From Cyanidioschyzon merolae (Eukaryota), in assembly GCA_000091205.1 (NCBI GenBank), contig AP006484.2: 64,000 bases of DNA. The stretch is one strand, 5' to 3'. The notes below the pieces were generated by a model. That model searched no databases. It was not told the DNA's origin and saw only the letters and a list, made by a program, of their open reading frames with translations. The position numbers and the translations under genes were made by a program. This document shows, piece by piece, positions 4,641 to 63,085 of this stretch (position 1 is the first letter of the stretch; every line of letters begins with the position of its first letter).

Positions 4641-7600
4641 AGCAGCGACTGGAGTGAGACTCAGTGCGAGTGCACCAACTCGCTTTATTGCCGATCAGCG
4701 TCAGGTTCAGCCCTGTCTTTTACATTGAACTCGGGCGACGTGATCGGTCGATTGAGAACTACCTGCTCTCTGGGTACGACGGAAATGTGATGCGGCTTGG
4801 CGTCTCGTACGGCATATGCACAAGTTCAGTGCAGTCACGTCCTGCACGCTTGCGCGTTGAACCATGACGCAACGTGTTCGGACGCGCACTTTCCGGCAGA
4901 CGCGTATCACAGAACCTGCGTTTGTCTCACGACACTGAAGCGTACGGAAATCTTCATTTGCGCGCTTCCGAGCAGAAGCACTTGGAGCTCGATTTCGGGG
5001 TCATGCTCTCACCACAGCTGGACGCGAGATCATCATAGTTCAATGTAAACCACGTTGTGCACCACGACGGTGTTCGGCCTGTGCAATCAGGCGCTCGCCG
5101 GCAGCATGGCGTGGTTGGCGGGCAAACGCGCGACTCCGATGGAATGCGTTTGGAGTCATGATATTCGTCGTGCAAACAGGAAGACGTTGTCGTTGACTTA
5201 TCTTGCCCGCCGTAGCTCCGCTGGGATCTCGGTCGCGTCAAGCTGGGGCACCGCTCCCTGCAGCCATCGCGGAGGTGGATAGCCATCTGCTCGCTCCTCC
5301 GGCTTGAATGGTACCGCTTTTACCAGAGAATATCCACAGAGTAGCGTCTGGCGCGCCAACTGCCAGTGGTCTCGACCCAAGTCTTGCCGCAGCTGTGCCC
5401 AGCGGTCCTGTTCCAGGCTCACAGGGCGGGCGTAGAACGGTACCGATCGCTGCAAACTGTAGCGTTCGAGTGCGTGCTCGGCGTCTTCGCGCTGTCTGTG
5501 GATAACCTTCCAAGCAAAGTTTGGCAAGTTCTGTATGAGATGGATAGCTGCCACAAAAAACCACATGCGCTAAGCTCTGAGCACTCCGCCCCTGGTCAAC
5601 CAGGCGTCCAAGAGTGTTTGCTTCTCTTTTCGCAGCACAGCGCAGAGGAAGAGCGCCACGAGCAGGTACGCACGCAGTCGTCGTTCGTAAAACTGGTTCG
5701 TAGACCAGGTGCTCGCCCTGATGACGTTCTGCACCGTTTGCTCTGTACCAGCAAAAGCGTGCGCTCCACGCTTCTCACTGTCGTTGAGAAAAAGTGAGCG
5801 ACTTGCCACCGTCTTGTGGTGCTAACGCGATTCGAACGCGTGCGGGCGTTGTGCCCAGAGGATCTTGAGTCCTCCCCCTTGAATGGGCATCTTCGAGCGC
5901 CGGTGCAGCTGCCTGATGGCGATCTTGCTGCCTGCGCGTCATGCAAACCACTCGGAGCATAGCACCTGTGCGAGGGTGTCAAGCGCTCGCCGCCTCTTCC
6001 GCACCGTGCCGTAAATTTGCATCCAAATTCATATATAAAGCCGTTTCTCGATTGCGCCAGTGTCGGATTTTTTTCCTTGACAGAACGTTTACCTAGGCCA
6101 GCGTTCTCCGATTATGCGCTTTTTCCTTTCTTTTTGGGGTTTTCAGTGCACTGCGAAGTATCCATCAAACACCCTACCCCCCGCTGCATTCCCTATACTT
6201 CTTCTCGGATATTCTGGTCGTTTCATACTTCGCATCGTGTGTGCCTGGTGCCTGCCGAAAGCGACCGCAATGGTGCCTCTAACGCCATTGCGGTCGCTGA
6301 ACGGATACAGAACTGCGCTGCCGTACCGCACAGAGGGCGTCGACTCGAGGCCCGTGTCGGACGCAGACTGAACGCTGAACGACTCGCTCTGTGCCCGATG
6401 TTCGTTATTTCTGAACCTTGTTTCGGTGTACTGGCTCGACATTCGAGGTGCAGCAGTAAATGAATCGGAATCGATCCGTATTTTAGGGTTTTCTGTCGTC
6501 TTTTTGGAGTGGCTTTGTTGACGATTTGTCGTTGGAATTATTTGCGTCACTGAATTCACGATGACGGACGACGAGATGAAACGGAGATTCGAAAAACGAA
6601 TGGAAACCGTTTCCCGACGCATACGAATGCGCTTCCACGCTCCTGCGTTTCTTTCGTGCAGCAGGTTCATACTATGTTTATGCTTCAAGTTATCGATCTT
6701 TGTGTTTCATGGCGGCCCGTTGGCGCAGAAGATCGCGCCCCTTGATAGACGGGCAGAGCAGAAACTTGTCATCGTCAATTGATGACTGGATCAAAACCTC
6801 ATCGCGCAAGTATACTGAGCTTGTCACGTCCCATAACCAACTCCGTTCAAAACACAAATCATTCTCTGCTTTAGACGTCGGAGAAACTGCACGCGAACCA
6901 GCATGATGCTTCGCATGGGATGCGCTCCGAAACGCTCCTGTCCTTTCTGTTTGCAGGGAAAAGGGCCTCGGACTCAGACTCTAGTGATCCCAGCGATCAC
7001 TGCCATCGGAGCGTGCGTCAGCGTTTTCCAAGATGGCAGCGTAGACGAATCGAAGTATTTCGACTTGATCACCGTCTTGGATTTTCCTTCCGGTACTTGT
7101 TTCATCATGGACGACATCGTGTTCCACAAACACTCTGTCGAATGAGATAGTGTGCGCTTGCGTGTGCAGCCTGCAATGACCTCCGCGAGGCCATCGCTCC
7201 GACCTGGCGCGTTCTCGTAGGTTATTGAACTTGAACGGGAAACGAAAACGAGCGTCGATTGAAGCCGTCCTTGCCAGTCAAAGGCGTGTCGCGACTAGTG
7301 AAGCAAACGTTCACGCACTACAAAACGACACTCGGGGGACGAGGAGATGTCGTATATTCGTATGAGTACAGATGATCTCAATCAAATTCCGACGTGTCGA
7401 ACGGCGTTCCGGGTCCGAATACAAAGAAGATACAAAAAGCAAGCGATGCACAGATCATAATTTCCATATGTGCATAAAACTCGTCGAAAAAAAGCCAAAA
7501 GCACAGCAATAAGGAATCGAATGCTGCCATGAACATGCTTCCACCGTTGACAGCGAAGCTGGAAGGACAGAAGCGAACGGCGTACTGAGAAGCATAGGTT

Positions 7601-12286: not shown

Positions 12287-13508
12287 TACCACGCTGATTC
12301 GCTGCTTTCACTCTATATCTTTGAGGTAAGGGGCAGGCTTCTGTCACGCGGATTCCGCATCCCGCCGGCAAGTAGCCGCTTTGGCAATGGTTGTCCTCGG
12401 TTGCGAGCCATTGTACGTCTGCACTTTGGGTATCTGCCTGTGTGATTTTCTGATGCTTGAACAGGTCACCATTGTGTGCTCGCTTCTGCTGCAAAGATCG
12501 AACGAGCTGTGGAGCAAGAGCGGGTGTCCGCATCGGTTTTGCACAACGGCCATGAACTGGCATCTTTGACGCAATCCACGCACTGGATAGGCATCCACTT
12601 GTGGGTCTAAGTCTTCTGAGACGGACTTGTCGTCGTCGCTGCCATCATGATCATCATACGAATGGACTTGAACAAAGTATCAATTACCTTCGATGAGAGG
12701 TCTTGTTGTTCAGGCGAGTCAAGAGTCGTTTTCACATACCAGTGTGTGTCCCGGATTGCACCATGTTTATCGACATTCGGGAAAGCGTCCGTCATACTCC
12801 ATTACCCAGGCGTGCTGTTCGAGACGGGCTTCTCTACAGCGCTGAACCATAGAAAAAGCGTTTCCATGATGGATGGATACGAGCGGCTCCCGCAGTGCGC
12901 AGCCCATTGAAAAAACTTGCTTGTTTGCGCTCTATGCTTTCTTTTTCGAGCACGAGGTTACAGAGGGCCTCATAACACCCTGGCGTGACGTCGATCCTGG
13001 ATGGAACGCGTTCGGGCTTGGGCGTTGGGTGTTTTGAAGCGGACGAGTGTCTCCAGTCGGTTATCGTCCGTTGGTGCTGGCTGGTGAGGCGGTTTGTTTT
13101 TCTTGTTGCGCCTCTCACGCACGCTGGCACCGTTTGCCTTGCGGTCGAGAGTACGTTCTCGCCTTTGAATGCAACTTGAGTCTTGTAATCAAGTTCTTGG
13201 ACACGACTGTTGAAGCAGTTTGGTTGTCGCAGCTGTCGAACTTGTGCAGTGTCGTCGAGCAGTTCCCCAGTGGCGTTTCCCGCGTATCAAAGGACTGCTG
13301 CTCGAACCTGCGGCTGAAAGAAAGCGTCTGTCGCTTTTCTCACCGAAGACTGTAACCTAGAACCGTTGCCAGAAACAGCATCACCCGCCAGACTTCGAGA
13401 CGGGAGTTGTCACGCACATTGCAGTCGACAGCCAAGGCAACTGCTGCACTGGTGGTCTAGAAGAGACGGTGCAGCGGCCCTGACGCGCTCTTCAAGCTGC
13501 CGACCGCG

Positions 13509-36596: not shown

Positions 36597-38889
36597 AGCT
36601 GCACAAGATGGTAACCGTCCTACAGAATAAAGAGAAAGCCAAGGCGATACGTAGGTCGCGAGCGACCGAACGCACCGTGGCCCTGGGCGTATGCGGCGCT
36701 CTGGGTACTGCGGAAGCGGACAAGGGCATCGCTGGGTTACTCGTGTTCCATGGAAGTGGAAGACTGAATTGCTCGCAATGTTCTAGCTTGACGATAGTTT
36801 TTAGACAAGCTGGATTCAGGTTCAAAGTGCAAAGATAAGGGCTTTAAGATGCATAGGTAAGTTTGAGATTCTTGATCGGAGGTTTCGGAGCGAGGCTGCT
36901 GCCTTCGCTTGTTTCCTGTGGAATGCGTTTCGTCGTCGCATTCAAGATGATTCGCAGCACCCTCGAACAAGCGTCCGTGCTGTAGCCGAATTCAGTGTCG
37001 AGTTCATACGTGTATTGCTTCATTCTTCCCCGTTCCTTATGAGACGCATGCCCAACTCCAGCATGTTTCATGTACTCGGTATTTCTGTTTCAAGGCAACT
37101 GGGCGGCAGAGCGATTCGCGCCGCTGGATCGAGAAGCGAGAAGACTCGGTGTCGTGCCTGGGCGACTCGGAAACAAGTTCATACTGAGAGTTCATTGAAC
37201 TTGTCCCGCCAGCGAATAGTTGATTGTGTTCGAAGGACAGAGCCCGGCTCTCTTTTGTGACCACAGTTGAAACAGCAATCTACGGCAGTATGATAGCTCA
37301 CAAGGGATACGTTGCAAGAAGATACCGTCTATTCTTTTTGCATAGAAAAAGGGTCTAGTACTCGGATATTACCATCGGAGAAATCTTTTTCAATGGAGAA
37401 AGCGTTATAACTTTACAAGAAGAGAGCGAGGACGTCTCGAAATCTGTAGACTTGATCGCCAGCCAGCATTTGCCGTACAGAACTTGTTGCATCAGAGACA
37501 CCGCCGCACGCTACAAGTCCCCTGTCGACGGAACAATGAGCGATTGCGTGCCCGGCGGATGGAGTTTTCACCATGGGGATTGCATAGAAGAAGCCCATGA
37601 TCTTGGAGTGCGGCTCAGGGTGCGGAAACAGAGAAGGAAATCGACTGAAGCTTCTTGTACCTGTCAAGCGCATGCGCCAAGCGATGAAGCAAGCGTTCAC
37701 GGACAAGAGCAGGCGCCCTGGGGAAGCGATACCCCAGACGTATGGGCATACGCGACCACAGTCATGTGTCACTGTTGCGAAGCTCGCACCGATGCCATCC
37801 ACAGAGACGATGCGTTTCGTGAGCGATGCGTCGATCGCAACGACCTCCTGTATATGAAACGCGTCCATAACCACAGGACGCATTATCATCTCTATTTGAA
37901 CGCGCTCATCAACATATTTCGAACGCTGACAGCAACACTGAAGCCCGAGAAGAGACCGATTTATTCGAATCCGGCGATAAGAAGGCGGAGAATGAAGCAT
38001 TCGCAGAAGACGCTCGTAAACTCTAGTTTTCACCGAATTGGTACCCGACGCAAACAATGGTCTATGCAAGCGCTCGCTGAACGATCTGCCTGACTTTATT
38101 CTGATGTGACATGAAAAAGAATCCGGCGGTGATCGGACGCACATTGCCTCCACCGGGGGCGCTCCGGCAGCAATCGTCCATGCGGCGCTACCACAGCTCG
38201 CACGACATCCTCAAAAGCCCTCTCCGCATCGATGCCAGGCACCCAAGCGTCCATCCGTAGCCTCCACGTCTGGGAGGATATGGCGCTCATCATTAGAACC
38301 TCATGCCAGTTGACTGAAACGAGGTCCTCTTGGCAACCCAGCACCAGAATTCAAGTGCGTACCCATGAATCAACAGCTGTAGGAGGACACCCGCCGATCC
38401 TGCCCTTCATGACCAGATAACAGGATCGGAGTTTCGTACGCACGTGTTCGTCTGGCGTTCAACACAAAGGTAAGCTCAGTCAACGAATTCGCTTCACACA
38501 AAAGCACACGCTCGCACTTGCACCTACGTCTCCCAATACTGACCTGCCTAGGTGGCCAGGGGCCGCGCTAGCAGGTCCATTGTCGCGGCATCCAATGGAG
38601 TCACGTGCGGCAGCAGATGCCGCTGCCTCCACGATCCCATTGGTATCGACGATGACGTGAACAGAGGACTTGATGCAGCACCGCATTCCCGCTTCAATAT
38701 CGCAAAATAAAGCAGCAAAGATTCCACGACTCCATTGCTTCTACCTGTTTTTGACGGAATCACTTGGTGGACACCAATGGTCTGCCGATCAGGTGGCTCC
38801 CCCGACAGGGACGCGTAGCGCCCATGAGCAACGCCCTGAAAGCGTGCTGCTGATCGCTATCGCCGCCGTTGGCGTCTCGCCCGAGGCAC

Positions 38890-39140
38890 GCTGCTGCGGA
38901 TGCTGCTGCTGCTGCTGCGGATGTGGCTGCTGCTGCTGCGGATGTGGCTGCTGCTGCTGCGGATGTGGCTGCTGCGGATGCTGCGGATGCGGATGCTGCG
39001 GATGTGACTGCTGCTGCGGATGCGGATGTGGCTGCTGCGGATGCTGCGGATGCGGATGCGTTCCCGAGTGCGCGCGTTGCTACGAGTGCACTGCAGTGCT
39101 GTGCTGTGCCGTGCAGTGCAGTGCAGTGCAGTGCTGTGCC
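38890..39140. repeat. GC-rich minisatellite: about 21-bp units GCTGCTGCTGCGGATGTGGCT and variants (about 8 copies), followed by a (gtgcagtgca) repeat
   Basis: Directly visible tandem units. They generate spurious long ORFs on both strands (poly-AAADV / CCCGCG / SSSHIR translations). Confidence 0.8.
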
Positions 39141-43026: not shown

Positions 43027-45433
43027 CATCTTCCTCTGCGCTGAACGCATGAAAACGAGTCTCATCGCTCGACTCACGATTAGGATTCATAAAGCGAATG
43101 CACATTCGCATGCCATCCGTCGCCATCGCCTCTGTAACCACCCTTTCCGTTCATCGATCCGAATGAGGGAAAGCGTTGAACGAGCGCCTCGAATGATCTG
43201 GGCGAAGTTGTTCCAACGTATCATCCTGGCGTACGCAGTGCAACCGGAGCTCACTGAACTCGCTCTACAAGACACGAAACAAGTGTCTCCGGGAAATGCA
43301 AGCGGCCTCGAGGCGAGTTACCGGGACCGTATCGCATGCCCCGCGAGAACAAGATGCAACGCTCGCACAACTGGAGTCACGCTGACGTGCTATGGAGGGC
43401 TCTGCTCATGACTCCATCGTCACGCGAGATGCAAGCACGGCAGGTATCGTGTCTCAAGCATCCTTTCGATACGACATCTGCCGGTTCGAGTTCCAGAGCA
43501 GCACCATCAGCTTGCACGAGATGAGCCGACGCTGCCTCTCGTCTAGACTGTGCTTGCAAAAAGTCGCCTCCATTTCGAATGGTATCGGTAGCACCAGCTT
43601 GTCAGTTGCCGCCAGCGACATCGAGAGGAAGCACTGCATCTCTCCAGACTCGTTTGGTCCCGGCAGCGTGAGGCTACAGCGCCTCCAGGGAGCGCCTCAT
43701 GAAGCGCTAGAGAATGACCTGCATGCGGTTGGAGTTTTTGAGGGTTGTTCCATCGTTATCGGCATCTGTGGTGTAGATGTTCAGGTCACCGGGTTCGTGT
43801 CGCAAAGCGTCAAGCAGCGGTCAGAAACATGTGTACGAACCTCTGATCCTACGATGAGACTGGCTTGCGTCTCCGGTGCCGAGTCTCAGATGTGTTGTCG
43901 CACGAAGGTTTCATCGAAAGACTCCGTAGGAATATGGACAGCTGGCTGCCCTGCATCTGGAACGGGTAGGAACACCGGCTCCTCGATGTCCACCAAGGCG
44001 AGGGAGGCTTGACGAAGCCCCTTCGTTTAGGGCGCTATGGTTCCCCTGATAGCGTCCTGCACGTCGCTTTCTGGCAGGTTCTCCGCGTTCGCGTGCTCTT
44101 GTAGCGAAGCCTTGATAACCAACACAGACCGCCCTTTCCGATCCGACTCTCGATCGTTTCAGTCGCTGCCCGTCCTCTTTTGGAGAGGAGTCTTTCTCTC
44201 GCTGGCCTGGTGGTTTCGTCTCGTTTTCGTTGACTGCGACGGCTCGCAAGGATATGCTTGGGACGCTCTGCCATCCTCGTATGCCCTTGGAGTTCGGACG
44301 GACCTGGTGGGCAGCAAAACTGAAGCTCGTCTTTTACTTGTACGATTCTATTATTCCTTAGGTGCCGCTCCGTCACCAGGTCTATTGCCAGGGCGCCTGG
44401 CGACTGCAGCGCGCCTGACCGCTTCCTCCCGCACACGAGCAGAGAGGGAGCGCAGTAGTTGGCGGCTGATGAAGGCCGAAAGCAACTTGTCGACGAACTG
44501 GGGTGTCACGGATGCGAACGACTCGCCTCTTCAACCCGGAGCGTAACCCTGGCGTTCGACGGCAGAGAAGCCACTGTCGACCGGACCGAAGTAAAGAGCG
44601 CTGGCTGGCGTCACGGGCAGCTCAACGTCAACCGCTGGTGCGTTCTCCTCGACACCTGGTGAGTGATGGAAAGCGACTTTATGCAACATCAGGACATGTG
44701 AATACGGGGAGCAGACTCCTCGAGGAAAGCCCCGACGACGAGGCATGAGGCATTGAACGACAGGGCCCGCTTGGCGAGTTGTAGGCGACCTCACGACTGA
44801 CTCGCTGCTGGGGCTCATGTTGATACGATACTCGCTTGTTTCTGCGCTGAAGCCAGGCGTTTGCCACTCCTGGACGACGCACATCTCGTGCAGGAGTGCG
44901 GGTCCTCCCGAACAGACGCTGAAGGCGTTAGACGATCCCCCGCGCCCCCTTTCTATCATATGGTATGCGTCCGCGAGGAAGTGCCCATGCAACAGTGGGG
45001 TATTCACCGTGCAGCGGTCTCCGGTTCGAGCGTGCGTTCTCCTTTGTCTGTTCGCGTATCGTTGTCAGCGTTCGGATCGTTGGTATGCGGGCCTGAGATT
45101 CTGCGGCTTCTTTAGACGTATTTCTTTGAAAACGTCTTGACTGGCGAGGATTGACAAGGACCCGATCTTTAGACAACGTTCTAGGAGTTCATTTCCAGGT
45201 GCACAACGTTCAGAGCACGGACGACGAGAAATACCGCTCATCCACTTGCTGTCAGTAGAATAACTGACCTGTACAATGAATTCTGTTTTCCGCCAGCTGA
45301 CACAGACTGTCATACAACGTTTCTGCGACCTATCCCCGATCGACACCAACCAATCCCTGTGTTGTACGCCTGCGAGAGACACATACGCACACAACAGGAT
45401 CTTTCTGGTACAGGTGTTCCGGAGCCACTGCTC
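43027..45433. repeat. Left arm of a large inverted repeat (about 2.4 kb), about 98-99% identical to the reverse complement of 56809-59212
   Basis: The six-frame ORFs in this arm reappear on the opposite strand in the right arm with 0-3% amino-acid differences (for example 44037-44546(+) is identical to 57696-58205(-), and 44531-45007(-) matches 57235-57711(+)). Boundaries were mapped by reading where identity stops (outer ...tcttcctctgcg[c/t]tgaacgcatgaaaacgag, inner ...ggtacaggtgttcc[g/c]gagccactgctc). Confidence 0.9.
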
Positions 45434-45701
45434 CAGTTTAACACCGCACCATAGCTCCAAAAATCTGCCGTCTTCGTTGTTGGAGTTTACGCAGTATATC
45501 CCCCAGATATGCTACCATTACCACCGCACTCCGGACGGAGACGCTCCGCCACAGACCAACGCTCTATCGACCGCCAGGCGGCGTGCCCTCAGTGATCTCA
45601 CCAGCGCTCGGCAGCGCACTTCGTTTGGCCTTCAGTTCAGTTCGTGACCTGTCCGTGCACACAACCAACGAACTGGAACGTTTCAGAAATCTGTGGAGTG
45701 C

Positions 45702-47132
45702 ATGTTTGTGTTGCCAGTACATCTGGAGAAACGACACTGCAGTCCGTTCTGCAACGTTCGGTTGGTGGCGGCAAGTCCTTGGAAACGCTTCGCGAAACGT
45801 CGCCTTTGGCTGTGCGGGGGCGCAGGTGGCCCGCCCTCCTTCGGTCGGGGAAACACCGACGATAATGACGATGACGACGACGACCAGAACGATAAAAACC
45901 GCTCTAATGGACCAAACGAACACAAAGACGACGCGAGCGACGGCCTAAACTGGTCACTGCTGCAGCGGCGGGTGCGGGAACTGCGAGCAGCTGCTGCGCA
46001 CGAAGCGAACGCCTCGGAGCGCAACTGGCAAACGGGGCGCTGTGAGCGGCTCGCGCTCCTTGTCTTCGAAGACGATGACGTTGCAGGCTTCAAATACGTC
46101 AACTCGGAGGTTCTGGTCGGCTCCAGGTCTGGTCAAGTTCGTTGGGTCGACCTGGAGCACCGACGCCTGTTGCGCACCCTCGAAGCACCGTGCTCTCGCA
46201 TCGACCCGTCGACTGTAGCGGCAACGAGTGCTCTCGACTTTGATGGTTCCGTAGCAGCGATTGGCTATGCAGACGGATCTCTCCAGTACTGGTTTCTGCG
46301 TCAAGAGACGCCCGTGAACTTTTTATCGTGGCCAAATGTGTTTCAAGCACCGGTGGTGGGTATTGCGTTGCTCCCGGGGGGCCGCTTCGCTGCCGCATCC
46401 CTCGAGGGACGCCTACGAGTCTACCCAGCGGAACCGCCTCGCCCGGGCGAGCTTGTGGTTCCAGTGCCGCCACTCGTAGACATCGACGTGCAAGTGCCGG
46501 TGCTGTCGATGGAAGCAACGACCCAACACTGTCTTATTGGTTGCCTTGACGGTACCATTCGCGTGTACTCCCTTGCGAACGGGAGCTGCGTGCTGCGTCT
46601 CAACCCCAGCGCAAACGAAGAGCGGGCAGCTGGAATTTCTGCTATCTATTACGAAACATCGACTGAAACGCTCTGGATTGGTGATGAGCTTGGACTGGTA
46701 CGCGCACTGAACCTCCAGCAAGGGGAGCTCATCCAGCGTTTCCAAGCGCATCGTGGTGGAGTTCGTTCCATTTTTGCGGATGCCACGAAATTGGTCACAG
46801 CTGGACGTACTTCCGTCCCTGGAGAGAAACCCATAGACTTTGTGGAAGACGTACTCCGAGTCGCCGAAACAGCCCGGAAGGAGACGATTCCCATTCCGGC
46901 TGTAGGAGCGGAAGTGGACGACGCAGGCGCATCGTTCCCGCATATCGAAAGTAATATTCCGGGGCTGTCGGGTGGAAGCATTCGCGTCTGGTCGCAGACG
47001 TATCAGCGACCGCTTTTTGAACTCGTTGGTCACTCCGAATCGCTCTCCACTGTGCAGTTTGATCAGAACAAGATGGTAAGTGATGGTCTGGGTAGCGTGC
47101 TGCTGATCAATCGCTTTGGTCTGAAAATCTAA
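45702..47132 (+). CDS. WD40-repeat protein with acidic (poly-Asp) N-terminal region
   Basis: WD-like blades: DGSLQYWF, DGTIRVYSLANGSCV, GGSIRVWSQTYQRPLFELVGHSESLSTVQFDQNKMVSDG. The first ATG is at 45702, since the tool used GTG 45693. The 5' end begins about 270 bp inside the unique segment, next to the left IR arm. Confidence 0.6.
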   Translation: MFVLPVHLEKRHCSPFCNVRLVAASPWKRFAKRRLWLCGGAGGPPSFGRGNTDDNDDDDDDQNDKNRSNGPNEHKDDASDGLNWSLLQRRVRELRAAAAHEANASERNWQTGRCERLALLVFEDDDVAGFKYVNSEVLVGSRSGQVRWVDLEHRRLLRTLEAPCSRIDPSTVAATSALDFDGSVAAIGYADGSLQYWFLRQETPVNFLSWPNVFQAPVVGIALLPGGRFAAASLEGRLRVYPAEPPRPGELVVPVPPLVDIDVQVPVLSMEATTQHCLIGCLDGTIRVYSLANGSCVLRLNPSANEERAAGISAIYYETSTETLWIGDELGLVRALNLQQGELIQRFQAHRGGVRSIFADATKLVTAGRTSVPGEKPIDFVEDVLRVAETARKETIPIPAVGAEVDDAGASFPHIESNIPGLSGGSIRVWSQTYQRPLFELVGHSESLSTVQFDQNKMVSDGLGSVLLINRFGLKI

Positions 47133-47905
47133 AGTCTCCGAGGACCTCGACAGAGCCATTGAATTCATCCAGGCTTCGTACCCGCGCACTCAGACTTGCA
47201 GTGTCTGTCAGTTTCTCATGAGGAGGATCGGCTACTCGTGGACATGCAACAACTTCACCCTGCAGATCAGTGCTTCAGTGCGGCTGAACGCTGGAGTCAC
47301 TGCTCGCTATTGCGGTATCCAGTGGAACTGAGGCAGAGGCTCAATGCCGTTGTGATTGAAAACGCAACTCGATATCTCCGCCCAGTCTGCGGCCGCAGAC
47401 CCGAAAAATCGTGTACTTCTGTGTATTGTCGGCGTGCCAGGTGCGGGACAGGCACCACGGTATGAGTGTGTCAATGTTTCTGGGCATTGGCAGCGTTCGG
47501 TGCCGAGACGGACGTCTCGGGAGAGGATGCAGTGTCGAGCACAGTTCCCAGCAATGGGCTCTGGGCAGACTAGAGGTGCCCGTTGCGCGCACAAACGCGT
47601 TGAATCATGGTATGGCGTCAAAGTCTACAACAAGAACAACAGCAAGGTCGGGAAGGGTAAATGCGCTGACGACCCCAGAGCGAGTGAACCGGTGGCCGGC
47701 GCCTAAGAAACGTTGCTGGCGCTGCGTAGAGCACTACGGATACGAGCGAATACCCAGTGAACCAAAGGACCTTCCATTCAATGGGGCACGCCGGTACCAG
47801 AATGCGCTCCACAGTGCGACATTCTGGCGTACCAGGGCCCTCTTACCGCCACAAGCTCTTGAGTCCGCAACGCGCATCATACTATCGGTGAACCTCTGCA
47901 GCATC

Positions 47906-47998
47906 CTATGAGTGCCACAAGGTTTGAATCCCGAAACGCTGGCGGGCATCCGTGAACCACTGATGTGTCCCAAAGTAGGGGTCCCAGTCGTCGTCCTC

Positions 47999-48030
<32 letters not shown>

Positions 48031-51000
48031 CGACGTCGTCGTCATCGTCGTTAGGGTCTGCGTCATCATTGTCTCCGGTGCCCGCTGAAGTCGTGGGAGC
48101 GGTCGTAGCGGCTTCGACGCACCCAGGGGCCCCATTGACAGCATCTACAACCGCCTGCCCGGTCTGTGCCTGCATCGTCGAGAATCCGTTATGCGGAGCA
48201 GTGGACAATCCAGACGCCTGGTTCGGGGAAAGCGCTGCTACCTGCATTGACCGCTGCCCAGCGCTCGTGTCTGCGCCGTGCCCTACCCAATGACCTTCGG
48301 GCAGTGGAAGCAGGGCCAGCGTCCGTTCGCTGCCTCTGCTTCCATGAGACGACAGTACACGAGCCGGAGAGCGACCCATTTCAGCTCTCAAAAGCGGCAT
48401 TTCAAGCGCATCCGATGTCGAGCACGCTGCAGGGTGTATTGTAAAAGCGACGGAGATGAGGTACGGGAACGCATGCAGCACGAGCCGGGTGTAGCGGTGC
48501 AGATCTGCAACCACATGCTTGCGATCCTCAAAGTGCTCCAGCTGGGACTCTATGTGCCCACTGGCTTCTGCTGCGGCAATGGACGACTCGAAGAGGGCCA
48601 GTTCGGCACGCTCGCGAGGTAGGAGGGTCCTGCGCTGACGGCGCGCAAACGCTAGTCTCATAGCAATATGCGCTCGCATACCGCGTACCGTCTCACGACG
48701 AATCGGCACATAGACAAAGCATTGGACGCGTAAGACGGACCTTGCTTCCACAATGACTCGCTCAAACTCATTCAAGTAGCCAAGTTCCAGCAGCAAATGG
48801 CCGAGTCGTGCCACCAGTTCAGGATCACGTTCCAGCTCTGCAGCGTGCTCGGTCTCGGCGAGGTGCAGTTCAATCTCCGCACGGCGTCTGTAGCGAACAA
48901 GTTCGGCAGCGTAACTGATAGGCCCTGCCTGGATAGTCCATAAACACGACTGCAGACGGCACGGACAAGGTTCGTTGAGCGCTTCAGCAGCAGCCCGAAA
49001 CACGGCTTCGATCGCCTCGTACTCCCTGGCGTTGAGCGTGAGACGCCCTGAACCGCCGAGTAGCACTTTTTGCATATGTGTATCAACAGTGATCCGCTGA
49101 GATGTATCCGGATGAAGCAGGTTATCGAGAAAAGCGGTGACTTTGCTCCCACTGGGGACCCCCAGACAACCCGCCAAATAGTTCAGCAATGAATTCATGG
49201 GATAAGAGCCGAAGCGCGGTCGCCTCACCTGCGAAATCGCCCGATAATTGAGCAGTGCGTTGATCGTATTTGCCGCAATCGATGAATTCGGTGAACACGT
49301 TGCAAGGAGCGAAAGGAAAAGATGCATTTCGAGAGCGTTTCCGTATGTCGCGCCCTGAACTACATCGTGGAGGTCCTGGTACCACGTGTACATGGCTGGA
49401 TGCGTTGCGCGGATGCGCTTCAAGTGGTCGCCCAGTGTCTCCAGGGTCGGTGGAGGCCTCTCGAAACGGTGTTCCCCGAGAACCTCGATACAGGTGCGTA
49501 ATGCAGCTTCAAAAGGCAACGGCTTGCTGGACGCTGCAGTAGGTGGTGCAGGTTTCACCAGCGTCTGTGAGTCGAGTCGTTGGCGTCGAGCCCATTCTCT
49601 GCGCGCTTGCATCCCATTAGCGACTGGATTGAACCGCACCAGCTCCTCCAGAGCATGCCGGACTGCCCGCAGCTTCCGCGATGATGCCCACTCGTCCGGT
49701 ACACTGAAGACCCGCGGATGTGTTTCGTAGATGCACTCTCGAAGAGCGTGCTGAACGTGCGCCTCGGCAGAGAGGCGGGGTGTAGTGTCCGCAACCGTCC
49801 CGCGTTCCCGCAGGATGCGTCGTTCGTACGCATGTTGGACGCGTACGTAGAGCAGCACGTGCTCCTGTCTGCGCAGCTCGTTGGTGATCGCTGCGAGGCT
49901 CTTTTGTGTGGCTCCGAGGAGTTGCTCCAGGCGGTCGCGACCTTCCTGGACGAGAGCATCGATTTCCTGACGATGTTTTTGACGGAGTCGTTCACCTTCT
50001 TCACCGGCAGGGTACGCATTAGAGCGAAGATATTTCGTAGGGTTTGGCGCAATCGCAAGTGAGCCAAAAGTCTTCGGACTGCCTCCAGAGGTGTCGCTTG
50101 TGGTGTGCATGAGTAGCTGCTCCTGGCGATGGCCGACGCGTTCCAGCCACTGCTCCCGTATGCTCATGAGCCATTGTTGATATAGGGCAACATTCTGCAG
50201 CGGCCAGAGAGCACGACATGTGTCATCTGTTGTTGCGACGTGATCAGGAGCTGTGCTCTTGATCCCGCCCTCAGTGGTCTGCGTGTGTGCCGCTGCCTCC
50301 GCTGCTGCTTCACGGACAACCGATTCGGCTGCCGTCTGTATCTTTGCGTCTTGTTCGGAGTCCTCAGTGCCGCTTGATCGGATGCGCTGCTGATCCTGAA
50401 TCCAAAGCAGGGCACGGGACCAAGCGTCTTCCATGCTCGCGTCAGTTACAAGCGAAGCGACGGTAGCATCGGCGTCGACCCTGTGCGTTTGAGGATCCTC
50501 GATGCCGCTGATGCCCCCGTTCGATGCACTGCTCGCTGCTGGTATATTTTCGATTATAGACGGCCGCCACGGGGTGAAAGCGTGTTCCTCTAATCTCGCG
50601 TTCTGCAGCTTTGCTGACGACGGAAGGGCATCACATGTTGAAATAGCACTGCAATCGTTCCGCAAGCCCGCGGAAGCCTGCTTCATTGGTGACTGGAGCA
50701 CTTTGGGCGGTCTCCAGGGCGGTGCTTCGCGTTCACGAGCTCTCGACAAGCACAGCCTAGGACGCCGCGGCCCAAGCTGGTCACGTTCAGGTCTGGTTGA
50801 AGACTTTTGGCCGCTGGCAGCAACGGTAACGGCTTCCTTATTGCCAGGGCTACAAGCGTCCTGGCCGTTTCCCGGCACAAGGGAGCTGCGCTTCTTCGGG
50901 GACCAAAATGTCTCACAAGCATACGATTTGGCTTGCACGCTGTTTTTTTGTACGTCAACCATATTGCTTACTTCTGACGAACGCGAACTGCTGCCGCAGC

Positions 51001-51199
51001 GCACCGGTGTAGCAGCGGGCACAGTCTCGAGGCCCAGCGCTTTAGCGGCCTTCAGAAACGGATTTTCGCACGCGTTAGGTGCGAGCACCCTATCCAGTAA
51101 TGGTGTCGCCACTCTGCCTGAGTCGGTTTGCGGGGAACTAGTCGGCGGCACGAACGCTGGACCTGGTGGAGCTGATGCCTCTTCCTCTGACGTCTGCAT
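47906..51199 (-). CDS. Large (about 1100 aa) hypothetical nuclear-type protein with possible HhH-GPD (EndoIII-like) motif and C-terminal poly-Asp/Glu tail
   Basis: Continuous 3.3-kb ORF; the first ATG after the GTG start is at 51199. LAGCLGVPSGSKVTAFLDNLLHPDTSQRITVDTHMQKVLLGG resembles the EndoIII helix-hairpin-helix plus VDTHIFRV segment (Lys and Asp positions conserved), followed by ...CLWTIQAG, which resembles HHWLILHG. The C-terminal DNDDADPNDDDDDVDDDDDDGDDDDEDDD is encoded by (GAT/GAC)n. Confidence 0.5.
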
Positions 51200-52432
51200 C
51201 GCGGGGAAAAGCACAACAGCTGGACCCTTATTTTCCCCAAATTCTCCGCTTACAGCAGCCACCTATGCAAATACAGTATTTTAAGGTCGGTCTCTGGAGA
51301 TTATGAGCCAAAGATCACAACTAAACACCGCAAGTTCCCGAAAAGCTCAGATAGCGCATTCTGATACCAGATCGCTTAGAGCGCGATCCAGTACGCAGTT
51401 GTTCGCGAGGCGCATCGGCGGCTGGAGGCGGCGGTTGATCTGCAGCGATCCATCGCAGTGCGATGGCTTTGTAGTGTCTCCAGCCTAGGCTCTTGAAACT
51501 AATCTGATATAGTAGACCGGGATACAGTATGCGCTTTTGTCGGGTGCCTCGATCGTTCCAGGCGAGATGCAAGGATCAAACGTCGTGGCAGATATGGACG
51601 CTACAAATGTGCTATGCCTCTGCCGAGATCACCAGATCCGGGGGACGTAGCGGGCATCATAACTTGGACAGCGACGATAGCATGGAAATGACTTGAACTA
51701 TCATCGGTTCTAGCCCATGACGCGGGATAGAAGCAAAATTCAGGTCAGGTCCTTATTCCAGCGTCCGTGCGGCATGCATAACAAGCATAGGGATTAAACG
51801 TATATCCGTGTTCAGGAATCCTACCGTGCCTTGTTTGTTTACGATCAATAAAACTAACGAAACTCTTCAAGGCTAGAGTGATGCGTACCTTATCCAGACA
51901 AGCGTAAGCCGCAGAGAACGCTACGCTTTTGATCGAAGCGTCGAGGGGTATCCTGCCAGGCCCCTACATCTCCATGTATGTCAAGGCGGTACTGCGATGG
52001 GCAGTAGCTTCGGCACCAGCGACAGACCCTATAGCAAGAGATTATTCTACGTGAGTTTCCAATCTACGATACTTTATTTCAGCTGCAGCGCGATACAAAC
52101 ACGCATGTGCCAAGGCGGGGTGTCGGACACGTGTCCTTCATCGATCGATGAGGCGTCTCGCGCAGCGCATGCATCGCGCTCGATGAGGGTACCTGGGAGT
52201 TGGGGCAGATATGAGACACGACGCGCGTGCCGCCGTTGAAGGGAAACGTGATCTTGATCTTTAGCGTCTAGCTCTCGTGTAAAAGTTGTATTTTCGTTAA
52301 CTTCATAGGCAAGTATAGTTTTTAGTTCGATTGTGTTTCAACCCTCAAGTGAAAATATTCGATTGATTTTTCGCAGTGTATAAGAGAAGCCTTCACAGAG
52401 GGTTCATTTGAAAAAACTCAAAAAGGAAAGTT

Positions 52433-53230
52433 ATGGAAGAGCAAGTCGACGATCCTGGAGGCCCAGGGTCGCAGGCTGCCAGAAAAAACAAAAAAACAGT
52501 GCCGAGTCCAGAAGAAAAGGAAGAGAAGAAGACCCAAAGGGGGAAGGTCCTACGTCGAAGGCGGCAGGAAAGACGACTGTACAACGAGATGGTGGTGAAT
52601 ACCTCTCTTCTTGGACATATCAAGGATCCGTACGAGCAAAATTTGCGAGACGCTATCAGAAACCGTGTCGATTCGGACTCCAGGAGTATTATAGAGGCGT
52701 CGCCAGGACTGATGCATTTAGCGAGGGAGGTGTATCGCGACGTGACGCACATGGAAACGGTCGAGATTCCGGACGAGCTCTTCGACCAGACTTTTATTCG
52801 TCACCTAATGCTTGGCACAGGGGAAGCGCGGAGGGGAAATGAGCGGGTGCAAGTCCTCCACGAAAACTTCGCGGAATTCCGCTTCGAGGGTAATCGATAC
52901 AGGGGTGACGGGGATATTTACATACGCGGCGCCATGAAGTACCTCACGAATCTGAAGAACCATTTAACAGTGAACCTCGAACGTTTCATGATACGCACCG
53001 AGTTTGCACTTTACCCGGGCATCTCTCGCAAGGGGATATCGGCGATGATCAATGGAATCACGAACGATCGCCAGCGAGAAGATGAGATCAAGTTCGTTGA
53101 CAAGAAGCCGTCACACAGGAGCATGAATGAAGTCTCTGTAATCCGTGCGCCTATACAAGAGCACCGTGCAGTCTTGGGGCTGGCGAATCCAACAGACAAG
53201 ATATCAGAGTTGAAAAATGATAAGGAATGA
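52433..53230 (+). CDS. N-terminal segment of the TnpB/Fanzor-like protein (Lys/Arg-rich NLS-like N-terminus followed by helical REC-like region)
   Basis: ATG start. KNKKTVPSPEEKEEKKTQRGKVLRRRRQERRL is a strong bipartite NLS-like stretch, and Fanzor proteins characteristically carry N-terminal NLS/disordered regions. The segment is in the same frame as 53585-54634 but is separated from it by stop codons. Confidence 0.35.
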   Translation: MEEQVDDPGGPGSQAARKNKKTVPSPEEKEEKKTQRGKVLRRRRQERRLYNEMVVNTSLLGHIKDPYEQNLRDAIRNRVDSDSRSIIEASPGLMHLAREVYRDVTHMETVEIPDELFDQTFIRHLMLGTGEARRGNERVQVLHENFAEFRFEGNRYRGDGDIYIRGAMKYLTNLKNHLTVNLERFMIRTEFALYPGISRKGISAMINGITNDRQREDEIKFVDKKPSHRSMNEVSVIRAPIQEHRAVLGLANPTDKISELKNDKE

Positions 53231-53390
53231 TGTTATCCCCTCATCCTACGCTACTTCGTGCTTCTGGAACGAGAGCTCGAACGCAAGGCGGAGATGAAGC
53301 TGAGTAAGGAAAAATGAAGTGTCGGAGAGACGAAAGGCTGCGCTTCTGACGAACCGCTTCAGTGTCGTTCCAATGTGCAACATCAAGTCA

Positions 53391-54634
<1,244 letters not shown>

Positions 54635-56808: not shown

Positions 56809-59212
56809 GAGCAGTGGCTCGGGAACACCTGTACCAGAAAGATCCTGTTGTGTGCGTATGTGTCTCTCGCAGGCGTACAACACAGGGATTGGTTGGTGTC
56901 GATCGGGGATAGGTCGCAGAAATGTTTTATGACAGTCTGTGTCAGCTGGCGGAAAACAGAATTCATTGTACGAGTCAGTTATTCTACTGACAGCAAGTGG
57001 ATGAGCGGTATTTCTCGTCGTCCGTGCTCTGAACGTTGTGCACCTGGAAATGAACTCCTAGAACGTTGTCTAAACATCGGGTCCTTGTCAATCCTCGCCA
57101 GTCAAGACGTTTTCAAAGAAATACGTCTAAAGAAGCCGCAGAATCTCAGGCCCGCATACCAACGATCCGAACGCTGACAACGATACGCGAACAGACAAAG
57201 GAGAACGCACGCTCGAACCGGAGACCGCTGCACGGTGAATACCCCACTGTTGCATTGGTACTTCCTCGCGGACGCATACCATATGATAGAAAGGGGGCGC
57301 GGGGGATCGTCTAACGCCTTCAGCGTCTGTTCGGGAGGACCCGCACTCCTGCACGAGATGTGCGTCGTCCAGGAGTGGCAAACGCCTGGCTACAGCGCAG
57401 AAACAAGCGAGTATCGTATCAACATGAGCCCCAGCAGCGAGTCAGTCGTGAGGTCGCCTACAACTCGCCAAGCGGGCCCTGTCGTTCAATGCCTCATGCT
57501 TCGTCGTCGGGGCTTTCCTCGAGGAGTCTGCTCCCCGTATTCACATGTCCTGATGTTGCATAAAGTCGCTTTCCATCACTCACCAGGTGTCGAGGAGGAC
57601 GCACCAGCGGTTGACGTTGAGCTGCCCGTGACGCCAGCCAGCGCTCTTTACTTCGGTCCGGTCGACAGTGGCTTCTCTGCCGTCGAACGCCAGGGTTACG
57701 CTCCGGGTTGAAGAGGCGAGTCGTTCGCATCCGTGACACCCCAGTTCGTCGACAAGTTGCTTTCGGCCTTCATCAGCCGCCAACTACTGCGCTCCCTCTC
57801 TGCTCGTGTGCGGGAGGAAGCGGTCAGGCGCGCTGCAGTCGCCAGACGCCCTGGCAATAGACCTGGTGACGGAGCGGCACCTAAGGAATAATAGAATCGT
57901 ACAAGTAAAAGACGAGCTTCAGTTTTGCTGCCCACCAGGTCCGTCCGAACTCCAAGGGCATACGAGGATGGCAGAGCGTCCCAAGCATATCCTTGCGAGC
58001 CGTCGCAGTCAACGAAAACGAGACGAAACCACCAGGCCAGCGAGAGAAAGACTCCTCTCCAAAAGAGGACGGGCAGCGACTGAAACGATCGAGAGTCGGA
58101 TCGGAAAGGGCGGTCTGTATTGGTTATCAAGGCTTCGCTACAAGAGCACGCGAACGCGGAGAACCTGCCAGAAAGCGACGTGCAGGACGCTATCAGGGGA
58201 ACCATAGCTCCCTAAACGAAGGGGCTTCGTCAAGCCTCCCTCGCCTTGGTGGACATCGAGGAGCCGGTGTTCCTACCCGTTCCAGATGCAGGGCAGCCAG
58301 CTGTCCATATTCCTACGGAGTCTTTCGATGAAACCTTCGTGCGACAACACATCTGAGACTCGGCACCGGAGACGCAAGCCAGTCTCATCGTAGGATCAGA
58401 GGTTCGTACACATGTTTCTGACCGCTGCTTGACGCTTTGCGACACGAACCCGGTGACCTGAACATCTACACCACAGATGCCGATAACGATGGAACAACCC
58501 TCAAAAACTGCAACCGCATGCAGGTCATTCTCTAGCGCTTCATGAGGCGCTCCCTGGAGGCGCTGTAGCCTCACGCTGCCGGGACCAAACGAGTCCGGAG
58601 AGATGCAGTGCTTCCTCTCGATGTCGCCGGCGGCAAATGACAAGCTGGTGCTACCGATACCATTCGAAATGGAGGCGAGTTTTTGCAAGCACCGTCTAGA
58701 CGAGAGGCAGCGTCGGCTCAGCTCGTGCAAGCTGATGGTGTTGCTCTGGAACTCGGACCGGCAGATGTCGTATCGAAAGGATGCTTGAGACACGATACCT
58801 ACCTTGCTTGCATCTCGCGTGACGATGGAGTCATGAGCAGAGCCCTCCATAGCACGTCAGCGTAACTTCAGTTGTTCGAGCATTGCATCTTGTTCTCGCG
58901 GGGCATGCGATACGGTCCCGGTAACTCGCCTCGAGGCCGCTTGCATTTCCCGGAGACACTTGTTTCGTGTCTTGTAGAGCGAGTTCAGTGAGCTCCGGTT
59001 GCACTGCGTACGCCAGGATGATACGTTGGAACAACTTCGCCCAGATCATTCGAGGCGCTCGTTCAACGCTTTCCCTCATTCGGATCGATGAACGGAAACG
59101 GTGGTTACAGAGGCGATGGCGACGGATGGCATGGGAATGTGCATTCGCTTTATGAATCCTAATCGTCAGTCGAGTGACGAGACTCGTTTTCATGCGTTCA
59201 ACGCAGAGGAAG
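56809..59212. repeat. Right arm of the large inverted repeat (reverse complement of 43027-45433)
   Basis: As for the left arm: mirrored ORFs on the opposite strand with about 98-99% identity. Confidence 0.9.
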
Positions 59213-61509
59213 ATAATGCCGTCGTGGAGGGCGCGAGTCCCCTGCCTGAAAATACCCTGGCCATCGCCGTACCTCCGAATCAAGAGAACGGAGCCGACGA
59301 CCTCATGAGGAAAGCCGATGACGCTTCTTAGCTTTTCCAGAGTTCCGCTTGATCGAGATTCGGGCATCTTCGACACCGGCAGGGACACCCAGATGAGAAG
59401 AGTCGGCGTCTGGACCCATGTCGATGCTCGTTGCAACGTATCGAGCATATAGCGATGCTTTATTCGCTTCATGGAGATTGGCCGTGAGCACCCGTATGGC
59501 TCAGGGCCACGACCTCTGGCAGGGGGATATGGGATCGTACTGGGTCGCCAACGCTATCGGTTGTATGGGGGCAAGTAGTGTGCATTCACTTCCCTTTTCA
59601 ATGAGTTATGAGAGGAAATCACGCGGAAGGCGCGTCATTTGGTGGTATCCTATGGCGCTGGATGTGCTGCGGCATGCAATGCTTGCACTCCTGCTCCCCC
59701 TCTGACGAGAGAGTACAACGACTGCAGGGATCGATGCTGTACGATTTTTATGGATGCATTCTTGTCGACATACACGCATCACGAGCAGTGCTGCACCACG
59801 AAAACTATGAGGGAGGAATCGAGCGACACAGTATCCGAAGCGCGAGATGACTGGCGGGCTAAGCTGACCGAACGATAGATAGCGAGCGAATCAAAGATGA
59901 TAGGCTTGCTATGGTGTATTGTCACCAGTAAGAGAACGCGCAAGCATTTCCTCTACCAATACCGCAACGTTGCGATCAGCAAACGGAGTAATCTCGTGCG
60001 TTCGGAGCGTTTAGCGGCACGGCGTCGAACGAACTTCTAGGGAATCGTTTCGTACTCCGCATGGGCAGTGTGCTTGGACACGGACGACGTCCCGTGACGG
60101 AACCTGTTGTCAAATGCGAGGGTATTGGATTCTGGGCGGAGCTACGTACGGGCATGGTAGGAGTCAGCACCCGAATAAGGCTGGAACTCCGTATTTAGGT
60201 ACATACAATGGGAACGAGTTTTCAGGGCAATTCATGAACGTTCGTATTTGCCCATGATGCGACGTTTCTGTTGATGAGCAAGCAAATGTGAGTATCATTA
60301 GGGAGCTCACTTCTGGACAGCATGATGCTGTGACTCTACGCATAGACCTACGCTTCTCGAAGGCAGCCGCTTTATGACACGGGGCGATAAAATCAACGTC
60401 GATACCCGCCAGCATCCAAAATACTATCTGGATTGTGGTGCCTCGCATCGTTCAAGCGTTCCGAAGGGTGCGTTGCTTCCAAAGCGTTCCAGGTATTCTG
60501 CGTTACTTTCGCAGATGCAGCATGCTGTCTCGCTAGGTGCAGAGCGATCACGGGCAATTCGGCTTAAGGCGCATGATGGAAGCTTCCGATCTTGCAGTTA
60601 TCTCGAGTGCCGGTCTTCATGGCCAGTGCACGTGGAAACGTTGTCTTTGAAAAGTTTCGTGAGAGCGATCGCACGGAACTCGACGGGTTTTCGGAGACAC
60701 TTCAACACAAGCACCTTGCCGCAGACGTGATCGATCTAGATGCGGCTGGGGCATAGCATCGTGCATCGATTCGAAGCATTGCTCCACAATAAGCAGCAAA
60801 TGAGCAACGCAGCTGTGGATATCGGGGAGAGGTTCGCGATCGACACGCCTCTTCGCGCAAAGAGCGCTCCATCGCGTCGACATTCACAGGGGTCATCGTG
60901 CTGGTAGACCCGCCTTGGAACACTAGCAATGCATTGTCTCGATGGATACGTATTCGTCACGAGGATTGATACCTTGGCTTTGAAGCAGCAGTCTCTTCAT
61001 GAGACAGCTGCTTCAAACCAGTGCCGCCTCGGCCAGCAACGTCAGCAGCGTATCGATGCGCTGACCCATAAACCATCCACACATGCACCACTGTCGGTGA
61101 AACGCTTACTCACCTTCCCTAGCTTCCACCGAAACAAAAACTTTCATTTAATTGGCGTATTTAGAACTAGATAGTCACTCAGCTCAGAAACGATATAGAA
61201 TCATTCCGTCGTCCTGAGCAAGGGGTAGTTTGGATCCAGTGCATCTCTGGCCTTGTGCGACGCTCGCGTTCCCCTGATCGGCTTGCTTACGAGGCAATTG
61301 TTACTCAAGAGTCACGGTCCACAAGTGAAAAGCAACGGTCGCTGGTACAGAGCCGAAAATCCCCACCGATTCGAGTGCAACAGTTGCTTGGGCGCACCGA
61401 ACCCGAAGCAGTCAAAGCCAATCATCACTTGAAGACTGCACCTCTTGCCACGCTGCTTGACCCTTATCAGCGACATAGACCTTGACTGGAATCTGTCGTC
61501 AAGAGTTAC

Positions 61510-62520: not shown

Positions 62521-62760
62521 ACACGTATTTGGCTGGCAAGCACCCGTTTTCCCTCAAGCTCAACTGACCACGTACGCTTCACAAAGCGCTTGTGCAACGT
62601 TTGACACAAACACAAACGCAAGCTAAAGAACGTTGGGTGTGTGTGTGTGGAGATCGTTGCATCACGCGCCTGTCAGGGCGCGCCGGCGTGATAGTCGCCG
62701 GCGCGCTTCTCCAGCGCACACCTGGGTGCCGTGCGATATACCTGCAGGTGCTCCTGCTGT

Positions 62761-63085
62761 GTTTGCTGCGTTCATGGTATTGTGCGAGGTCCCGTAGGTA
62801 CGCGACTGCGTTGAAAGCAGGTTTAGGCTTCTGCTCCTTCAGTGTTTGCTGCGTTCATGGTATTGTGCGAGGTCCCGTAGGTACGCGACTGCGTTGAAAG
62901 CAGGTTTAGGCTTCTGCTCCTGCAGTGTTTGCTGCGTTCATGGTATTGTGTGAGGTCCCGTAGGTACGCGACTGCGTTGAAAGCAGGTTTAGGCTTCTGC
63001 TCCTGCAGTGTTTGCTGCGTTCATGGTATTGTGCGAGGTCCCGTAGGTACGAGACTGCGTTGAATGCAGGTTTAGGCTTCCCTCG
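62761..63085. repeat. 83-bp tandem repeat, 4 copies
   Basis: Unit gtttgctgcgttcatggtattgtgcgaggtcccgtaggtacgcgactgcgttgaaagcaggtttaggcttctgctcct[t/g]cagt begins at 62761, 62844, 62927 and 63010, with a few substitutions. Confidence 0.85.

Follow-up and report, generated by a model that had tools for sequence, protein, structure and literature searches.

CMB136C, a large hypothetical protein of the red alga Cyanidioschyzon merolae, probably contains a divergent DNA-glycosylase domain close to Ogg2

Introduction

What kind of protein is CYME_CMB136C, which is deposited as a hypothetical protein in Cyanidioschyzon merolae 10D, and does it act together with the TnpB-like gene that lies beside it? 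The gene is situated in a stretch of 64,000 nucleotides from contig AP006484.2 (assembly GCA_000091205.1), called the window in the following. An initial annotation of this DNA had recognized a motif resembling the helix-hairpin-helix (HhH) and catalytic loop of the DNA glycosylase endonuclease III (EndoIII), and had pointed to a possible pairing with the TnpB-like neighbour. In our preferred reading, to which we assign a probability of about 0.6, CMB136C is a large scaffold-like protein with a single recognizable catalytic module, a divergent HhH-GPD DNA-glycosylase domain of Pfam family DUF7178, most similar to the Ogg2 group of 8-oxoguanine (8-oxoG) glycosylase/apurinic-apyrimidinic (AP) lyases.

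CMB136C is a nuclear gene, and the window, with a GC content of approximately 55-58%, is red-algal nuclear DNA. Translation from the first ATG gives 1097 amino acids (aa), identical to CYME_CMB136C / XP_005535221.1. The length of 1118 aa given initially is obtained only when counting starts at an upstream GTG at position 51262, and is the kind of value that a bacterial-style caller of open reading frames (ORFs) gives. The protein is large and mostly helical or disordered, with the glycosylase-type domain in its centre; over the full length, its orthologues show 50% identity in Cyanidiococcus and 47% in a related species. The features on which the argument rests, all on the minus strand, are the following.

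47906..51199, minus strand: coding sequence of CYME_CMB136C; ORF of 1097 aa plus stop, exact match to XP_005535221.1
48929..49390, minus strand: DUF7178 domain, residues 604-757, assigned here to the HhH-GPD superfamily, closest to Ogg2
48830-49522, minus strand: modelled unit, residues 560-790, used as AlphaFold2 input
49115..49195, minus strand: helix-hairpin-helix NSLLNYLAGCLGVPSGSKVTAFLDNLL, residues 669-695, containing Lys686; from model and conservation
49142-49144, minus strand: Lys686, predicted Schiff-base nucleophile (130/130), aligned with EndoIII K120 and one residue off Ogg2 K129
49073..49114, minus strand: loop and putative catalytic-Asp motif HPDTSQRITVDTHM, residues 696-709 (Asp 128/128)
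49082-49084, minus strand: Asp706, at the N-terminus of the next helix, aligned with the Asp of Ogg2 IIDRH and with D138 of EndoIII VDTH
48929..48952, minus strand: QSCLWTIQ, residues 750-757, with Gln750 (121/123) and Trp754 (120/120)

A conserved DUF7178 domain in the centre of CMB136C

The family assignment is clear. DUF7178 (PF23802) matches residues 604-757 with an E-value of 7e-9, with bit scores of 36.2 (whole protein) and 40.4 (domain alone) at a curated cut-off of 27, and the same family is matched by 72/72 aligned relatives; the orthologues carry the identical precomputed assignment. In PHROGs the match is phrog_3842, a family of unknown function, and the search of NCBIfam gave no match. 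Residues 560-790, searched with HMMER against 1.8 billion representatives, retrieved 125 proteins falling into two tiers: long proteins of 800-1100 aa with 47-76% identity in the domain, and approximately 100 proteins of 170-220 aa with 25-35% identity. Word-index homology searches with the domain or the 72-sequence alignment returned few matches only.

The stretch highlighted initially (LNYLAGCLGVPSGSKVTAFLDNLLHPDTSQRITVDTHMQKVLLGG) corresponds to residues 672-716 and lies within the DUF7178 match, and the observation that its Lys and Asp are conserved has been borne out. Conservation was counted in 133 retrieved proteins aligned to the family hidden Markov model (HMM), with the proteins covering a given column as denominator. 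Lys686 (130/130), Asp706 (128/128) and Trp754 (120/120) are invariant among the covering members, as are Tyr in the motif WY (115/115) and Ser in the motif SP (118/118), and Gln750 is found in 121/123. The Lys and Asp positions are also invariant in the 72-sequence alignment. Moreover, pocket-type residues are conserved in phage and eukaryotic members alike, namely WY 606-607, SP 636-637, Asn644, Tyr727 and Gln750; QSCLWTIQ lies probably within the base-binding pocket. The domain is also the best-conserved segment of the whole protein (88%, 85%, 72% and 54% identity within the Cyanidiophyceae and approximately 50% to ichthyosporeans), which, judged from the alignments, indicates strong purifying selection on it.

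Predicted fold and nearest enzyme family

AlphaFold2, run on residues 560-790 with the family alignment and no templates, predicts an all-helical domain with a mean predicted local distance difference test score (pLDDT) of 89.9 and a predicted template modelling (TM) score of 0.86. The top Foldseek match of this model is MjaOgg (3knt; probability 0.99, TM 0.52-0.58). The modelled fold is two-lobed and all-alpha as in EndoIII, MutY, AlkA and the OGG enzymes, which is what the initial annotation had proposed to look for. In domain numbering, the HhH of the model consists of helix 110-119, the hairpin LGVPSG and helix 126-136, while Asp147, which equals Asp706, caps helix 148-155. In the predicted structure, this succession of HhH, loop and helix-capping Asp makes up the signature arrangement of HhH-GPD enzymes. 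Lys686, which lies in the second HhH helix, and Asp706 are 20 residues apart, in line with the spacing of approximately 18-20 in the bifunctional glycosylase/AP lyases Nth, OGG1, Ogg2 and AGOG. The loop ahead of Asp706 has one conserved Pro and fewer Gly/Pro than the loop of classical HhH-GPD enzymes.

Profile comparisons point in the same direction. When the family HMM was run against PDB sequences, Ogg2 chains ranked first (3fhf, E 0.0074; 3knt, 0.0081; 9o00, 0.033; 3n0u, 0.056), followed by OGG1 with E ~1. In the HMMER alignment, GpKvraFydN...VTvDrH is matched to GYKEASHFLRN...IIDRH; the family Trp meets the W of 'YIW' in Ogg2, which is position 198 as counted from the 3knt alignment. With hhalign, the family profile was aligned to E. 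coli EndoIII (Nth), pairing K686 with K120, D706 with D138 and Trp with Trp; SGSKVTAFLDNLL...ITVDTHMQKV came to lie on VGRKTANVVLNTAF...IAVDTHIFRV, exactly as in the initial annotation. In the same alignment CLWTIQAG, which contains Trp754, is paired with HHWLILHG, so that the early impression of an echo of the EndoIII H..LILHG motif stands.

The notion of an EndoIII-like glycosylase is thus retained at the level of the HhH-GPD superfamily, to which both the Foldseek match with MjaOgg and the Ogg2 profile matches lead, and given up at the level of the subfamily. CMB136C contains no iron-sulphur (Fe-S) motif of the type Cys-X6-Cys-X2-Cys-X5-Cys. C745, C747 and C752 are not conserved, Galdieria and further members have different residues in place of the cysteines of EPCPCRLQSC, and the family has no conserved Cys column. 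Compared with Endonuclease III/Nth (E. coli 2abk, human NTHL1), which is structurally further from the DUF7178 domain than Ogg2, CMB136C lacks the [4Fe-4S] loop and a match to PF00730. From Ogg2 itself (Thermotoga Tm1821, 3n0u; Methanocaldococcus MjaOgg, 3fhf/3knt) the domain also differs: identity is only approximately 15%, the Lys is shifted by one residue, the loop before the Asp is 3 residues longer, PF22175 gives no significant match, and the algal domain is embedded in a eukaryotic protein of 1097 aa. Since Ogg2 chains rank first in the profile search, PF22175 is barely touched and the Fe-S motif is absent, the DUF7178 domain is a distinct HhH-GPD family that is nearest to Ogg2 and is not an EndoIII, with membership in Ogg2 itself not demonstrated. 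Likewise, the plant 5-methylcytosine glycosylases DEMETER/ROS1 differ from CMB136C, which has neither their Fe-S cluster nor their split glycosylase domain and whose flanks are unrelated; nothing indicates a methylated base as its substrate.

Several observations must be mentioned that weigh against a glycosylase assignment. PF00730 (HhH-GPD), the profile proposed for searching at the outset, was matched at E <= 1 neither by the protein or its domain nor by any of the 72 relatives; only family-profile and fold comparisons reveal the HhH-GPD relationship. PF22175 (Ogg-HhH) was touched by only 2/72 relatives, with E 0.069. Pairwise BLASTP of the domain with E. coli EndoIII did not align the motif, and phmmer searches of PDB sequences with the whole protein and with the domain gave noise only. 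In the HMMER alignment, the family Lys falls one residue after Ogg2 K129. The hhalign comparison with EndoIII has an E-value of 0.008 and a probability of just 4.9%, a low value owing to the single-sequence template. The AlphaFold2 model of the full 1097 aa, built on a 4-sequence alignment, reached a pLDDT of only 35.5 and is unusable. In the literature, enzymatic data were not found for any DUF7178 member. A role of CMB136C as substitute for a missing 8-oxoG glycosylase was also considered; it is weakened by the report of MutM, MutY and MutT homologues in C. merolae (PMC2941479), with which a housekeeping 8-oxoG role is not needed and a specialized substrate becomes plausible.

Could the motif then be a short coincidence in a protein unrelated to glycosylases, as the initial annotation had allowed? 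The empty BLASTP comparison with EndoIII and the unmatched PF00730 would fit such an explanation. It is contradicted by the fold search, and the motif sits in a domain that scores above the Pfam cut-off, holds invariant residues and is the best-conserved segment of the protein. The probability of a coincidence is negligible, and we regard it as effectively excluded.

Long forms in eukaryotes, short forms in phages

The long form of the protein occurs in all four cyanidiophycean genera (Cyanidioschyzon, Cyanidiococcus, Cyanidium caldarium and Galdieria partita), furthermore in the ichthyosporeans Chromosphaera perkinsii and Ichthyophonus hoferi, in Mantamonas plastica, and in metagenomic eukaryotes or unidentified protists. 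One of the metagenomic long forms is encoded on a compact eukaryotic contig together with SH2, THOC5 and DAGAT genes. The short forms (170-220 aa) are found on phage-like contigs crowded with small ORFs, where the family appears either alone, as an early protein, or as one module within polyvalent proteins. With phage-type members as queries, DUF7178 was detected in at least 291 of 50,697 phage records, covering many phages of Mycobacterium as well as phages of Streptomyces, Gordonia, cyanobacteria and roseobacters; the algal domain itself, used as tblastn query, matched none of the 50,697 records. In Mycobacterium phage DroogsArmy (genus Timshelvirus) the gene is located approximately 1.4 kb from the right genome end and is the second from that end.

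Fusions are also found among these proteins. The metagenomic proteins P0026 and P0027 combine DUF7178 with ADP-ribosyltransferase exoenzyme domains, and the structural matches in BFVD lie within phage 'polyvalent' proteins of more than 1000 aa, beside helicase, SleB and RelA/SpoT modules. This context implies that DUF7178 is delivered into the host cell together with the phage DNA. The phage DUF7178 / phrog_3842 proteins belong to the same sequence family as CMB136C and share its invariant residues, at an identity of 18-30%; whereas they consist of 170-220 aa alone or are fused with ADP-ribosyltransferase or other polyvalent-protein domains, CMB136C adds approximately 900 eukaryote-specific residues.

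Independent annotation also speaks for the glycosylase reading, as several phage homologues have been deposited as 'glycosylase', 'DNA glycosylase' or 'N-glycosylase', for example those of Mycobacterium phage DroogsArmy (locus L011, 1377-1952) and Rhodococcus phage Shagrat (L012, 1236-1853). Annotation of the family is inconsistent: in other phages the homologues are mostly named 'hypothetical protein', and two are called 'glycosyltransferase'. Searches of the literature for DUF7178, CMB136C, HhH-GPD or Ogg2 in phages found no description.

The phage forms are also informative for the possibility that the domain is catalytically silent, i.e. a former glycosylase kept for its HhH-based DNA recognition as a DNA-binding or scaffold module of a large structural or chromatin protein. 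Such a role would suit a very long protein with disordered and acidic regions, in which a single domain is recognizable and which has no known activity. Inactive glycosylase derivatives normally lose their catalytic residues, whereas DUF7178 members from phages to protists keep the Lys, the Asp and the pocket residues without exception; and the stand-alone phage forms of 180-220 aa have no other module to serve. Hence, we consider a silent module distinctly unlikely.

Flanking regions and terminal motifs

Outside the domain, the long forms share a common architecture. A variable N-terminus, often with NPF(L/W)K, is followed by a helical region with FNP.A.G...R, the domain, the motifs LLELGYL, VPIR.E and R..FARRQ.R, and the C-terminal DPYFGxHxxF. 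In CMB136C the long conserved flanks comprise residues ~396-560 and 801-910. A profile of 10 full-length eukaryotic homologues was compared with the PDB, in which the flanks matched nothing.

51020-51082, minus strand: N-terminal motif NPF(L/W)K(R/A)A, conserved across distant eukaryotic homologues
47987..48082, minus strand: Asp-rich low-complexity run, residues 1040-1071, with 23/32 residues D/E
47909..47986, minus strand: conserved C-terminal 26-residue motif WDPYFGTHQWFTDARQRFGIQTLWHS, downstream of the acidic run, with the core DPYFGxHxxF

The initial annotation had described the protein as ending with the acidic run, which was taken as typical of chromatin-associated proteins. The run ends at residue 1071 and is followed by the conserved motif of 26 residues, which is 88% and 80% identical in close orthologues. 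Its core is common to all long eukaryotic forms, with D1073, Y1075, H1079 and F1082 invariant in the 10 eukaryotic sequences. The run itself occurs only in Cyanidioschyzon and, shorter, in Cyanidiococcus; it is lineage-specific and no feature of the family, and the significance initially attached to it is not supported. NPF(L/W)K(R/A)A and DPYFGxHxxF may be docking motifs.

A predicted mechanism

If the preferred assignment as a bifunctional HhH-GPD glycosylase holds, a mechanism can be outlined from the established chemistry of Nth, OGG1 and Ogg2. The hairpin would bind the backbone of duplex DNA, and a damaged or modified base would be flipped into the pocket that the two helical lobes enclose. 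Aided by Asp706, Lys686 would then attack C1' to form a Schiff base, and beta-elimination would nick the strand, as expected for combined glycosylase/AP-lyase activity. The long conserved flanks and the NPFLK and DPYFGxHxxF motifs probably recruit or regulate the enzyme. Another possibility is that the HhH-GPD fold is catalytic and acts on an N-glycosidic substrate other than DNA, such as a free nucleoside or nucleotide or RNA, comparable to the queuosine-salvage enzyme QNG1/DUF2419. We rate this as unlikely.

Genomic surroundings and the Fanzor remnant

The question of a partnership with the TnpB-like gene depends on the wider locus.

52433..54634, plus strand: decayed copy of the CMe-1 Fanzor1 (TnpB-like) transposon, located by tblastn of the published CMe-1 consensus
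43028..45433, no strand: left arm of an inverted repeat, 2406 nt
56809-59214, no strand: right arm of the inverted repeat, 35 mismatches in 2406 nt, 98.5% identical

The inverted repeat noticed initially is real. Its arms bound 11,375 bp with a WD40 gene, CMB136C, the Fanzor remnant and a coiled-coil gene of 246 aa. Searches of Pfam and PDB with the TnpB-like ORFs gave nothing, and their identity was settled only through the published CMe-1 consensus, which matches the window with 68% identity over 52433-54319 (630 aa; tblastn). The copy is decayed, with an in-frame stop, a middle part in another frame and a D-to-N change that turns the GADPG of the consensus into GVNPG. CMe-1 Fanzor1 of C. 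merolae is present in approximately 150 copies, each ~80% identical to the consensus (PMC3627910). Furthermore, the two genes had been described as convergent. The remnant and CMB136C lie head to head, i.e. divergent, 1.2 kb apart; the convergent neighbour of CMB136C is the WD40 gene (45693-47132, plus strand).

A functional pair of CMB136C with the TnpB/Fanzor homologue, inside a mobile unit bounded by the inverted repeat, would be in accordance with the distance of 1.2 kb and with the enclosure of both in an 11.4-kb segment flanked by arms of 2.4 kb. However, the TnpB-like ORFs represent one copy, disrupted by a stop and a frameshift, of an element with ~150 copies in the genome (PMC3627910), and the remaining genes of the segment are normal genes of the host. 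The orthologue of CMB136C in Cyanidiococcus and in a second related species is flanked by the same WD40 gene and a coiled-coil gene of ~245 aa. Neither the syntenic loci (L001-L004) nor L010 nor the phage loci gave a Fanzor match, and the locus of a distant eukaryotic homologue gave none, so that the co-occurrence with Fanzor/TnpB genes proposed for checking is absent from all of them. Because Fanzor is missing from orthologous loci with the same flanking genes, the adjacency represents a lineage-specific transposon insertion into the intergenic spacer. The Fanzor1 remnant is no part of a CMB136C system. What had appeared as a notable pairing with a nuclease-dead homologue of RNA-guided nucleases is therefore a decayed copy of a multicopy element, and a functional partnership is so improbable that it can be regarded as effectively excluded.

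Beyond the arms, the genes have the same order and orientation as in Cyanidiococcus (L001) and the second species (L002); between the arms both are inverted. This points either to an inversion through recombination of the two repeats or to an artefact of the assembly. Neither a long ORF nor a match in the orthologous loci was found for the arms. A second Fanzor-like remnant (59095-59821, plus strand) is far more diverged, with 30-35% identity to CMe-1 residues 371-624; it begins in the outer 120 bp of the right arm and runs outward. Since it starts within the right arm, the arms may be transposon-derived. Transposon debris is also present at 6173-6350 and 12749-12801, where the sequence weakly matches (73-77% identity) the CMe-1A / TE-N2_CMe consensus in its 5' non-coding part.

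Numerous ORFs of 100-260 aa run across CMB136C, either antisense to it or in other frames, for example 50502-51284 (plus strand) and 47734-48144 (minus strand). No homology backs any of them; such ORFs are expected in GC-rich DNA, and real genes are unlikely among them. Scanning the window for Rfam families and tRNAs gave no matches. Repeats of other kinds are a tandem array at 62666-63080, with a unit of 83 nt in ~5 copies of which the last three are 97-100% identical, and an imperfect GCTGCTGCGGAT-type microsatellite at 38869-39087, just upstream of an ORF of 299 aa at 39198.

Significance

The CMB136C domain is a new, uncharacterised variant in a well-known enzyme superfamily. Its assignment provides a testable function for a 'hypothetical' protein of the model red alga C. 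merolae and for the Pfam family DUF7178, and it removes the false lead of a glycosylase coupled to the relic of an RNA-guided nuclease. As a rather doubtful speculation, the CMB136C family could represent the eukaryotic domestication of a phage glycosylase that excises a specific modified base and not oxidative damage, retained in a few deep lineages (Cyanidiophyceae, Ichthyosporea, Mantamonas and unidentified protists); if this were true, the domesticated glycosylase would be an epigenetic eraser comparable to DEMETER or an enzyme attacking modified viral or transposon DNA. If DUF7178 proteins are active, they would add a distinct branch to the HhH-GPD glycosylases, one with an unusual reach from phage early genes and injected polyvalent proteins to proteins of ~1000 residues in a few deep lineages of eukaryotes. 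The substrate of this branch could point to a kind of DNA damage or modification that matters for the conflict between phages and their hosts or for genome maintenance in thermoacidophilic algae.

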